This document shows positions 8,837 through 61,220 of a DNA stretch of 64,000 bases, one piece after another. The stretch lies in NCBI GenBank assembly GCA_951406725.2, contig OX597816.1:138508001-138572000 (forward strand). Direction: 5' to 3'. This stretch comes from Octopus vulgaris (taxonomy: Eukaryota). The position numbers were made by a program, and so were the translations under genes. Within the stretch, counting starts at the first letter, position 1. Every line of letters begins with the position of its first letter. The notes below the pieces were generated by a model. The model was not told the DNA's origin, did no database searches, and worked only from the letters and a program-made list of their open reading frames with translations.

Positions 8837-9241
8837 AGATAGATAGATAGATAGATAGATAGATAGATAGATAGATAGATAGATAGATAGATAGATAGAT
8901 AGATAGATAGATAGATAGATAGATAGATAGATAAATGTGACCGCGTGTGTACCGTTGGCGATTTTTTTCCTCCGTCTTCCCTTCTTTGGATCTTTCCTTT
9001 TCCTACGTTTCTGACGAAGAGCTCCGCTCGAAACGTTAAACCCTCCTTCTTCCCTTCTTTCCTGAGCGTTCAATAACACTATACTTGTTCCACGTCCGCG
9101 CGTTGTTGTGTTTTCTCTTTGTGTTTTCATGTTTGGATTAACCCTAGATAGATAGATAGATAGATAGATAGATAGATAGATAGATAGATAGATAGATAGA
9201 TAGATAGATAGATAGATAGATAGATAGATAGATAGATAGAT
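8837..9241 (+). mobile_element. About 210-bp hammerhead-bearing element (8933-9145) embedded in (GATA)n
   Basis: Pure (GATA)n on both sides; 3' part resembles the element at 31321-31460 (CCTGAGCG...TTCCAC...TTTTCAT). Confidence 0.8.
9007..9041 (+). ncRNA. Minimal type-I hammerhead ribozyme
   Basis: GTTT-CTGACGA-A-GAGC(TCC)GCTC-GAAAC-GTT-AAAC: stem I GTTT/AAAC, stem II GAGC/GCTC, loopless stem III, predicted GUU site. Confidence 0.8.
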
Positions 9242-9889
9242 GGGATTAAGTATAAGAAGACAAGGCATAATCAATATTAGTTAGTATTGCAGATGGAAGG
9301 CATTGAAATATGTGTTTGCAATGTGGTTGTAGGCTGATCCATTAAAGACCTTTTTTATGAATACTACCGGATATGTTAAATAGTCCATTGAATTTATATA
9401 TATATAAATTTAATGGACAATATATGAATATATATATATGTATGTGTGTGTGTGAGAGAGTGTGTGTGAGTGTGTGTATGTAAGATGGACAGCGACGATT
9501 AACGTTTGAGTTCGGAAACATTAGCAGAGATGAGATGAAGGAGAGACGCAATGAACGAGGGCAGTCAAGATAGGAACTGTGTTGTGATTGATAGATGTGG
9601 TAATAGGAATGTGACATAATGTGAATTGAGAAACACGTTGATGTGGTTGGCAAGAGGTAGTTAGAAAGGTAGTGAATGAAAAGTGAAAGAAAGTCTGAAA
9701 GAAGTAGAAGTCTGAATGAAAGAATAAAGGAATAAAAGGATGAGGGGAATCACGGAATCGGAGAAAAAACTTGGCACGGGGACACCTGATGAGATTCAAG
9801 AGAGAGAGAGAGAGAGAGAGAGAGGGGAATGGTTACGAAAAAATAATATAGACACGTTGAAGAGAATGATGAAGATAGTGACGGCGAAT

Positions 9890-10390
9890 ATAATGATGAT
9901 GATGATGATGATGATGACGACGACGACGACGACGACGACGATGATGATGATGATGATGAGGATGTTGGTGATGATGATGATTACGACGATCATGATCAGA
10001 TCATGGTCATAATGATCGTGTTAGTGATGATCGTAATGTTAGTGATAATGATCGTGTTAGTGATGTCGATAATGATGGCGATGATGATGATGATGATGAT
10101 GCTGATGATGCTGATGATGATGATGATGATGATGATGATGATGATGATGATGATGATGATGATGATGATGATGATGATGATGATGATGATGATGATGATG
10201 ATGATGATGATGAGGATGATGATGAGGATGTTGGTGATGATGATGATGATTACGACGATCATGATCAGATCATGGTCGTAATGATCGTGTTAGAGATGAT
10301 CGTAATGTTAGTGATAATGATCGTGTTAGTGATGACGATAATGATGGCGATGATGATGATGGTGATGATGATGATGATGATGATGATGAA
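9890..10390. repeat. (ATG)n compound microsatellite with a duplicated ~130-bp variant block
   Basis: Block GAGGATGTTGGTG...ATAATGATGGCG occurs at about 9957-10085 and 10224-10355. Confidence 0.9.
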
Positions 10391-59400: not shown

Positions 59401-60745
59401 CTATCTGTGTATAAGTATGTGTATGTCTGTACATATATTAGACATACCCGTATACCTATGTGTGTGTGTGTGTGTAAGTATATACACGCGCATATACGTA
59501 TATACAGACAGTGGGAGGCAGATAGGGTGGTGTATGAGACAAACAGAGATCTTTGAAGGGCGCGTAAAGGTAATATTTAACGTTTTACTTGCTTCCATAC
59601 CATCTTCGCTTAGTGAATTTGATCATCCTGAACTAATAATGAAAGCGCTGTAAAAATGTTGTATATATAGTTTATATATTTCGAAATACTTTATGTTTGC
59701 CGCTAATGCAGTGTACTCTGATGAGTGGTACTTTCCCATTTTCTCAGGTAATAAATCTTTGCTGACTGCGCTTCAAATTATCGCTATCATTACAACATGT
59801 GCTTATTTGTATATTTCGACATTAACTTATTGTGTCGTCAATACATTTCACTGAAAACTACTAAAGCCATGAATCACCCTGTGTTGGCACTGACTATTAC
59901 AGCACTGGAGATAAATAGATCTTAAAAGTCGTATTGTTGAGGTACGTGGTTGATGTGTTACTGATGACCTTTAGGTTCTGTGCTACTGAGTTCACAATTT
60001 ATGTCTCTGCAGTGTGTTGCTATTCGTTTCCCCGCATTCATTCCCCATTAGTTATATCAGTATAAAGATTCACCTATTGTTAGTTATTGTCTGTTGAATG
60101 ACCGTGTCCTTAAAGATGGCGGTTATCACACAAGGATTATTTCTTTTATACACTATATTTTTCGGGCAAACGATGGAGCCCCAATACAGTAAGCAATTCT
60201 CCCTCAAAACACTATGATTCTTCAATTGTGCTTTCTTTCATATTCCATATCCGATAAAACATACATTATTCACAGCTAGGATACATTCTTAAATAGGTAT
60301 TTATGTTGCTACCAGTTCAAATATGTTTGGGACATATTCGAACGCATAAGAAAGTCGTTCTCTGCGTTTTGTCATAGAGAAAAATTTTAGCTGTCGACAA
60401 AAAGTCGTAACCACACCAAGTCAGTCCGAAGCGCCCTCAGTTAAACAATTCCCCACCAGCAATTTTTTTTTAAGTCTAACACTTATTTTATCGGTCTGTT
60501 TTTGCCGAACCATTAGGACACGAGGACGTACGCAAACCAACATCACTTATCAAATCGGTGTAAAATATATGTGCGTGTGTACGCCACATGTATATATATA
60601 TATATATATATATATATATATATATATATATATATATATATATATATATATATATATATATATATATATATATATATATATATACATATATACATATATA
60701 TAACAAATTAAAAGGGTGGCTTATTAGCAATTAGAACCTAAAGAT

Positions 60746-61220
60746 AAAATTAATAGAGGTCACAAAAGTGATGGAGGGTACTGAGCCACTAAAGCATTAT
60801 ACTTAATGACAGACAAAAGGATGTGAGTCCCGAGCGTACACAGCTGCATCGCGATTTGGAATTTTGGTGCAGACCACCTAAATTCTCATCAGGAGTTTTT
60901 ACCGCCTAGGGTTAAATCAACTACCTTTGTCAATCTTATAAGAAAAGCTGTTGAAATCATTTGCTGATTTTCAAAATGGTAAAAGTGTAAACAACAAATT
61001 AAAAGGGTGGTTTATTAGCAATTAGAACTGCTGATGAGAATTAAGGAGGTCTGCACCACAATTCGAAATCGCGATACGGCTTTACATGCGAGGGACTTAC
61101 CTCCATTTGTCAGTCATTACGTATAGTGCTTTATTTGCTTTAGAGTTAATTTAACTCCTATCTTAGCATAAGTTGTGCTAATCAGTACCATTCACCACTT
61201 TCGTGACCTCTATTAATTTT
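60746..61220. repeat. Head-to-head inverted pair of a hammerhead-bearing element between (TA)n tracts
   Basis: 60746-60892 is a diverged reverse complement of 61031-61220; 37-bp direct duplication at about 60702-60737 and 60993-61028. Confidence 0.85.
61028..61079 (+). ncRNA. Type-I hammerhead ribozyme
   Basis: CTG-CTGATGA-GAATT...AATTC-GAAAT-CGCG-ATA-CGG; palindromic stem III, predicted AUA site; the inverted copy at 60841-60893 has CAAA and ATG instead. Confidence 0.75.

Follow-up and report, generated by a model that had tools for sequence, protein, structure and literature searches.

The 64,000-nt stretch of Octopus vulgaris DNA analysed here (GenBank assembly GCA_951406725.2, contig OX597816.1, positions 138,508,001 to 138,572,000 of the forward strand; hereafter the window) contains eight sites which, from their sequence, are predicted hammerhead ribozymes, one copy each of eight dispersed repeat families (A to H). 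There is a strong probability that four of these families (A, B, C and E) are truncated tails of Penelope-like elements (PLEs), and that the other four (D, F, G and H) are protein-free closed units likely inserted in trans by PLE-type enzymes. The cluster is thereby sorted into two known classes: the four hammerhead stubs are tied to coding parents in two PLE clades, and the units devoid of an open reading frame (ORF) share paired ends and inverted arms with young autonomous PLEs of the same genome. Here and below, statements about published systems refer to the passages covered of the sources cited.

Hammerhead folds in the window

Both strands were scanned with a descriptor requiring CUGANGA with at most one mismatch, stems I and II of at least 3 bp and a palindromic stem III. 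Seven type-I hammerhead folds were found, with core position C3 at 9011 (+), 31452 (-), 39751 (+), 40213 (-), 44080 (-), 45714 (-) and 61031 (+). Dinucleotide-shuffled versions of the window (40 shuffled block-wise and 40 as a whole) gave a mean of 0.40-0.42 folds and a maximum of 2-3, and none of the 80 reached seven; perfect-core folds numbered four against a shuffle maximum of one. The motif frequency is thus far above that of the shuffles, a comparison that had been set beforehand. The eighth site, at 11834, escapes the descriptor through a mutation to U.U at the foot of stem I in that copy; most of the 20 copies examined of its family have A-U there. The preliminary description, which had proposed about eight type-I hammerheads, is therefore borne out by seven folds and one decayed copy of a fitting family.

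For each family 40 candidate matches were scored and 20 loci fetched; the first-look candidates, which are not copy numbers, came to 969 (A), 135 (B), 492 (C), 1712 (D), 1779 (E), 1831 (F), 3626 (G) and 461 (H). The core motif (CUGANGA / GAAA / UH, with stems I and II) is present with at most one core change in seven of the eight window copies and in 8/8 at the family level. Stem III is a palindrome or near-palindrome of 4-10 nt at all eight sites, and unrelated stem sequences pair in every family, in agreement with the earlier claim of differing stems that still pair. Cores are canonical in families D, E and H, and the core and stems II-III of family E are identical in 20/20 copies. Three of the window cores are non-canonical, namely CUGUUGA at 31452, UUGAAGA at 44080 and CCGAUGA at 45714, and in the 20 copies of each family the variants are fixed or common (A6U in 20/20 for B, C3U in 20/20 for F and U4C in 15/20 for G). 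Position N7 varies in B and F while the adjoining core positions are constant, which points to selection on the hammerhead motif in the source lineages of these two families.

The folds might instead be chance matches in AT-rich repeats that were never functional ribozymes. Rfam gave no match in the window at gathering score, no hammerhead family among the 150 of 373 matches listed, and none over 39690-40260 at E<=10; Rfam matches to microRNAs in the window were microsatellite artefacts and were set aside. The three variant cores fit such a reading, as do the minimum-energy monomer folds of the eight window copies, which mostly pair across the core. It is nevertheless hardly credible in view of the excess over shuffles both here and in a 400-kb genome sample (13 folds against none; see below), the pairing of unrelated stems in every family, the free N7 beside a conserved core, and a motif position that is the same as in published PLEs.

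Hammerhead density across the genome

The genome sample consisted of 40 stretches of 10 kb taken at round coordinates (400 kb) and was compared with 25 shuffles. It contained 13 perfect-core folds against 0 in the shuffles and, with one mismatch allowed, 21 against 3.4, two of the 21 being one site. Scaled by hand to the 2.8-Gb genome, this corresponds to about 90,000 perfect-core folds (Poisson range about 50,000-155,000), or about 30 per Mb, which are invisible to Rfam. The density of the window is typical of the genome, since its four perfect-core folds compare with about two expected from the sample. Elsewhere, hammerhead copies number about 5,000 in mussel and up to 120,000 in the 28 Gb of axolotl; the octopus density is well above both figures, although the descriptors differ. 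About ten more hammerhead families, with stem III palindromes of 8-12 nt, were observed in the sample (L244-L283) outside the eight of the window.

Families A, B, C and E as ends of coding PLEs

The window copies of these four families, and the neighbouring repeats in which they end, are as follows (pLTR, pseudo-long terminal repeat; types as assigned by motif below).

8934..9143, plus strand: family A, 5'-truncated 3' end (pLTR) of a putative Neptune-type PLE, with a hammerhead at 9007-9041, between two (AGAT)24 runs
31322..31503, minus strand: family B, 3' end (pLTR) of a putative Neptune-type PLE, with a minimal hammerhead at 31420-31457, running into (TA)38
11742..12114, minus strand: family C, decayed 3' end of a putative old Hydra-type PLE, with a hammerhead at 11834-11947 that has a long stem II arm and the mutated stem I base
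11511..11655, plus strand: second, shorter copy of family C without CUGANGA, 88% identical to the first and tail-to-tail with it across a (TA)n/(TG)n run at 11652-11741
39977..40085, no strand: (AT)n/(AG)n run in which families D and E both end, tail to tail
40074..40480, minus strand: family E, 3' end (pLTR) of a putative young Hydra-type PLE, with a canonical hammerhead at 40175-40217

The hammerhead of family A is minimal, with an ACGU palindrome and an additional A after A9. One copy of this family adjoins a zinc-linker fragment, and following it led to frames for a reverse transcriptase (RT), a linker and a GIY-YIG domain. Among the ORF-bearing loci, 17/18 terminate in family A sequence, which also stands 5' of the ORF in 4/18. 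For family B, a full-length element (G000:C3:138498764-138503437; L208:764-5437, minus strand) lies 4.6-9.2 kb to the left of the window. Both of its ends are B-type, with 87-92% identity to the reference copy of B, and its stop-free frame of 929 aa matches RVT_1 (E=4e-7) and GIY-YIG (E=0.0036). The A and B proteins are 66% identical and both have DKG and a CX4CxxC linker, which falls within the CX2-5CxxC form of the Neptune clade; their parents are therefore assigned to the Neptune type, by motif alone and without a tree of reference clades, Nematis being also possible.

Families E and C could have been taken for long non-coding elements, which was ruled out by the ORFs found on walking 2-4 kb upstream. 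In family E, this walk leads through a long GT-rich tail and reaches an ORF in 10/10 loci, with an 821-aa frame in L334. Family E sequence is also found about 60 nt before the ATG in 4/10 loci, and one locus (L202) holds the ORF and the E end together. The parent protein has DKT, a CxCX5C linker, CxxC and CxH near its C-terminus, and KWK for RWK, and thus fits the Hydra clade. RWK is found in L358, a young family related to E (37% identity over 472 aa). In family C, a decayed ORF with CxCX5C and CxxC lies 2.1 kb upstream in L344; it is 5'-truncated and lacks the DKT region, and the interval between it and the C end is bridged in parts by L086, L092, L314 and L345. No pLTR repeat was seen 5' of the ORF for this family. 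By the motifs given in PMC8557442, the E and C parents are assigned to the Hydra type. Thus the window copies of A, B, C and E are, as their flanks and parent ORFs read, 5'-truncated autonomous PLEs, putatively mobilised in cis.

Two further observations concern the Hydra-type elements. The E parent (L201, L202, L334-L343) has a 3' untranslated region (UTR) of about 3.5 kb made up of degenerate GT-rich segmental repeats, which is long for Hydra. The L358 element (L358:2355-4939) is a young, high-copy Hydra-type PLE with a 717-aa frame and a hammerhead with a U4C core; it has many matches with identical scores, often in inverted pairs, and is a candidate for the active trans-acting enzyme.

Families D, F, G and H as closed units without ORFs

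39658..39982, plus strand: family D direct arm, ORF-less closed unit of about 545 nt, with a canonical-core hammerhead at 39745-39822, ending at the fixed end e1
39571..39656, minus strand: inverted 5' arm of family D, which begins at e2, the second fixed end
43838..44239, minus strand: family F direct arm, ORF-less closed unit of about 475 nt, with a hammerhead at 44011-44084 (C3U core)
44248..44559, plus strand: inverted 5' arm of family F, which stops at e2 and is followed by (TA)n
43695..43836, plus strand: additional inverted segment of family F, abutting the direct arm at its 3' end
45383..45819, minus strand: family G, ORF-less closed unit of about 530 nt, with a hammerhead at 45645-45720 (U4C, weak stem II), ending at e2 into (AT)n
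61024..61232, plus strand: family H direct arm, ORF-less closed unit of about 325 nt, with a canonical-core hammerhead at 61028-61079
60695..61028, minus strand: inverted arm of family H, roughly a full unit in length, in which another, degraded hammerhead lies at about 60842-60896

In these four families, reading 5' from the hammerhead leads into the family's own 3' end at many independent loci. The units have a GC content of 0.34-0.38, one type-I hammerhead each and no PLE frame. Among the 20 loci read for each family, copies longer than one unit numbered nine for D, nine for F, 5-6 for G and 6-7 for H. Tandem units were seen for D in L111 (about three), for G in L142 and L145 (two) and for H in L163 (two); the 20 loci of F held no tandem whole units, although nine of the copies exceed one unit. 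The D and G units share 64% identity, with F a weak relative of the two (z 2.4-4.5) and H unrelated. We therefore class D, F, G and H, as known from their sequence, as non-LTR (long terminal repeat) retrozymes.

Alternatively, all eight families could be solo PLE terminal repeats, with the tandem D, F, G and H copies arising as local pLTR duplications whose parents went unsampled. This is true for four of the eight, E and C having seemed ORF-less until the walk upstream, and the 20 loci read per family stand against 461-3626 first-look candidates. However, D, F, G and H run back into their own 3' end; what comes after the 3' end in A, B and E is a 5' UTR with an ORF. PLE fragments lying beside F (L210), G (L212) and D (L101, L104, L107) were considered as parents and rejected as separate insertions. 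L104 and L107 (on C2 and C4) are two D insertions belonging to an interchromosomal segmental duplication, which also takes in a fragment of a Hydra RT; as their flanks are shared, they were counted as one event. An origin of all eight as terminal repeats is thus improbable, and we retain the division into PLE tails and closed units. The preliminary description had noted that none of the elements has an ORF, which is correct within the window, where six PLE protein queries gave no tblastn match, and incorrect for the four families that end ORF-bearing PLEs. Likewise, the case that would have removed its proposal, in which all copies are ends of autonomous PLEs, applies to four of the eight families. 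Its view of many non-autonomous families or solo pLTRs mobilised in trans fits the four closed ORF-less units and not the four truncated autonomous PLEs, which would have moved in cis.

Insertion ends and microsatellite targets

Downstream of the predicted cut, a TA- or GATA-type repeat first occurs at 102-168 nt at six of the eight sites, at 266 nt for the hammerhead at 45645 and at 834 nt for that at 44011, the background chance of such a repeat at 60-260 nt being 0.17. A (GATA)n end is confined to the copy at 9007, and the direct arm at 44011 has no terminal microsatellite, its inverted arm having one. Over the loci fetched, a microsatellite directly follows the 3' end in 120/160 (A 20, B 19, C 13, D 17, E 13, F 13, G 17 and H 8), some misses being due to a reference that ends short of the true 3' end. 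Together with the four families that end PLEs, this upholds the proposed link to PLEs and to microsatellite targeting.

Families C, D, E, F, G and H have two fixed ends, about 40-145 nt apart. Two-armed copies used opposite ends in 10/12 for D (one pair being the segmental duplicate) and 4/4 for E, with F and H noisier. For G the arms used opposite ends in 8/11 copies on a strict reading and none shared an end, three flagged rows having been dropped for internal palindromes. The young Hydra PLE, compared with L358, has the same opposite-end layout in 4/7 copies. In published PLEs the layout is that of an inverted truncated copy with a tail on one end (PMC8557442), and in vitro work on the anole Poseidon element PAc attributes the tail to a pair of internal sites at which the RT starts (Frangieh et al. 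2024; PMC11167929). Of the 13 fixed ends, those of A, B and D-e1 have clear TA microhomology (fraction of positions 0.01-0.04) and the other 10 are unremarkable in this respect; the combined p of 0.003 is not relied on because the anchors were hand-picked. None of the ends inspected carried a poly(A) tail.

Proposed mobilisation of the closed units

These features suggest a mechanism in which the GIY-YIG endonuclease (EN) of a PLE would nick a (TA)n tract and its RT would start at two internal RNA sites, one for each DNA end. Early fall-off of the RT would leave the short hammerhead-bearing stubs of A, B, C and E. The same PLE proteins would copy the small ORF-less RNAs of D, F, G and H in trans, these units likely carrying a structure that the PLE enzyme accepts. 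As the inserted copies span the cut site and may be longer than one unit, their template would be either an uncleaved multimer or a circle formed by religation. Given the palindromic stem III, cleavage would depend on the pairing of two ribozymes. Mobilisation of D, F, G and H in trans by PLE enzymes is our best inference, and the partner enzyme is more probably Hydra-type than A/B-type, judging from the two-end anatomy and the palindromes of 8-10 nt. The proposed PLE mobilisation of animal retrozymes becomes directly testable in this form, as reverse transcription is expected to start at e1 and e2.

We also considered that D, F, G and H amplify as RNA circles (RNA to RNA) or through a non-PLE enzyme, such as that of a long interspersed nuclear element (LINE) or a Helitron, the link to TA repeats being then a by-product of microsatellite density. 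Consistent with this are the lack of a sequence link to the sampled PLE ends, the 140 tandem-repeat rows in the window, and circular monomers that fold better than shuffles (z -2.9 to -5.1). However, the antisense strands fold nearly as well in D (z -3.9) and F (z -3.1), which weakens folding as a sign of RNA circles. In addition, the fixed paired ends and inverted arms match those of local autonomous PLEs and the published layout (PMC8557442), no poly(A) tails accompany the ends inspected, and microsatellite adjacency is well above background. Amplification by RNA circles or a non-PLE enzyme is thus unlikely, and insertion in trans by PLE enzymes is preferred.

Several points weigh against this preferred interpretation. 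A search for an autonomous partner of D, F, G and H, by BLAST and by shuffle-calibrated local alignment against 11 PLE ends, gave none (best z 2.9), the genome holding many more PLE families than the 11 ends compared. The two-end anatomy is not common to all PLEs here, since A and B have a single fixed end and almost no inverted arms (0/20 and 1/20). The preference for a Hydra-type partner is weak, because a Neptune/Nematis-type PLE family (L214-L243) is also two-ended and has its stem III in common with F. The units of L111, compared with a view to a single-circle origin of this trimer, are 0.959-0.974 identical to one another, against 0.966 for unrelated copies, and so have no excess likeness, while the antisense folding noted above detracts from this interpretation as well. 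The loci are the best matches to hammerhead-containing queries, and counts are biased to intact copies. The D unit, including its cut site, is partly covered by contigs of four presumed-RNA runs, in which strand, ends and circles are unreadable; the run records list no RNA, and this coverage is not used as evidence. Finally, cleavage may be poor in B (A6U), F (C3U) and G (U4C, weak stem II). A6C and U4C reduce the activity of other hammerheads (PMC3088659), minimal hammerhead ribozymes (min-HHRs) of PLEs cleave weakly, as dimers (PMC4209133), and eight of nine Xenopus retrozyme dimers did not cleave (10.64898/2026.07.22.740005), and activity may be low in several of the families.

A more far-reaching possibility, which we put forward tentatively and consider doubtful, is that D, G and F are an old self-perpetuating lineage of ribozyme circles without a surviving parent, which would hijack a Hydra-type RT by shape rather than sequence, with two fixed start points. 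Were this true, its hammerheads, about 100,000 in number, would place the genome with the densest animal carriers of ribozymes and make it a natural test bed for trans-mobilisation by PLE enzymes.

Other repeats in the window and elsewhere in the genome

Self-repeats in the window were identified by masked self-BLAST, raw repeat finding being swamped by microsatellites. At 17463-17628, between two (TA)n runs, two 3' ends that belong to a ninth PLE family lie head to head in inverted orientation. These ends are 87-91% identical to an end in L211 and both are cut inside the hammerhead, the L211 copy having a U3-A8-type core. The Neptune/Nematis-type family of L214-L243 is abundant and has a CX4CxxC-type linker; 3' of its GIY-YIG domain are hammerhead stems with a palindromic stem III and a degenerate core, two changes from CUGANGA. 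A repeat of about 300 nt, abundant and resembling a short interspersed nuclear element (SINE), is present in both orientations at 5591-5874, 12901-13217, 13594-14347, 16383-16567, 25085-25233 and 36023-36327, and we take it to be a cephalopod SINE. A 136-aa stop-free frame at 18141-18551 (minus strand) presumably represents an N-terminal fragment of a Helitron helicase, and a stretch at about 3130-3285, in the minus-strand frame 2836-3285, resembles what we take to be the C-terminal motif of a Tc1/mariner transposase.

Comparison with known systems

Both kinds of element have been described before, and our addition is a modest one, consisting of the density and a sharp biochemical prediction. 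Widespread solo min-HHR remnants of PLEs were reported from metazoans by Cervera and De la Pena 2014 (PMC4209133), non-LTR retrozymes from coral, mussel and axolotl by Cervera and de la Pena 2020 (PMC7229834), and a PLE origin of retrozymes was proposed by Li, Clavereau and Pollet 2026 (10.64898/2026.07.22.740005). The supplement of Craig et al. 2021 (PMC8557442) includes a Hydra PLE from octopus that has a hammerhead and prefers (TA)n. A 2026 annotation of octopus repeats (PMC13282606) gives 31 PLE families as recently active, along with many SINEs left unclassified, and the words ribozyme and retrozyme are absent from the passages covered of it. Our literature searches returned no paper on octopus retrozymes; these families may already be present in Repbase, Dfam, preprint supplements or the octopus repeat library.

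Families A and B share with the min-HHRs of metazoan PLE pLTRs (PMC4209133) the lack of a real helix III, the palindromic 15.2-16.2 and an additional base between 9 and 10.1. Those min-HHRs are likewise mostly solo motifs of truncated PLEs with inverted copies nearby. Family B differs from them in A6U, fixed in 20/20 copies, and the sections covered of that paper give no octopus example. The A and B parents resemble Neptune PLEs (PMC8557442) in DKG, CX4CxxC, a C-terminal GIY-YIG domain, (TA)n targets and a pLTR-ORF-pLTR arrangement, and differ from them in having one fixed end. The E and C parents agree with the Hydra clade, including Hydra-1_Obim (PMC8557442), in DKT (E), CxCX5C, a C-terminal EN, the hammerhead, (TA)n targets, and an inverted 5' copy with a tail on one end; one local PLE protein resembles Hydra-1_Obim by eye only. 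In contrast to published Hydra PLEs, whose members are generally <3 kb in total, the E parent has KWK, inserts rich in Asn and a 3' UTR about 3.5 kb long, and the tail is 85-145 nt in the E and C parents as against 30-40 in that clade (PMC8557442).

As ORF-less units of 325-545 nt with a GC content of 34-38% and one type-I hammerhead each, found as monomers to trimers in a genome that also contains PLEs, D, F, G and H are like metazoan non-LTR retrozymes (PMC7229834; 10.64898/2026.07.22.740005). While known retrozymes occur in long arrays and are known as linear and circular monomer RNA, the octopus units are mostly dispersed, truncated and two-armed, lie in TA repeats and are known here from DNA. 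They have no homology to the sampled PLE ends, whereas in Xenopus 24/57 families match a transposable element, nearly all of these being PLEs (10.64898/2026.07.22.740005). The closest likeness in mechanism is to PAc (PMC11167929), with its two internal RT start sites, its AT-rich targets and uncleaved RNA as its main substrate; in octopus, however, the two ends lie 40-145 nt apart, are used by opposite arms, and are found also in non-coding passengers.

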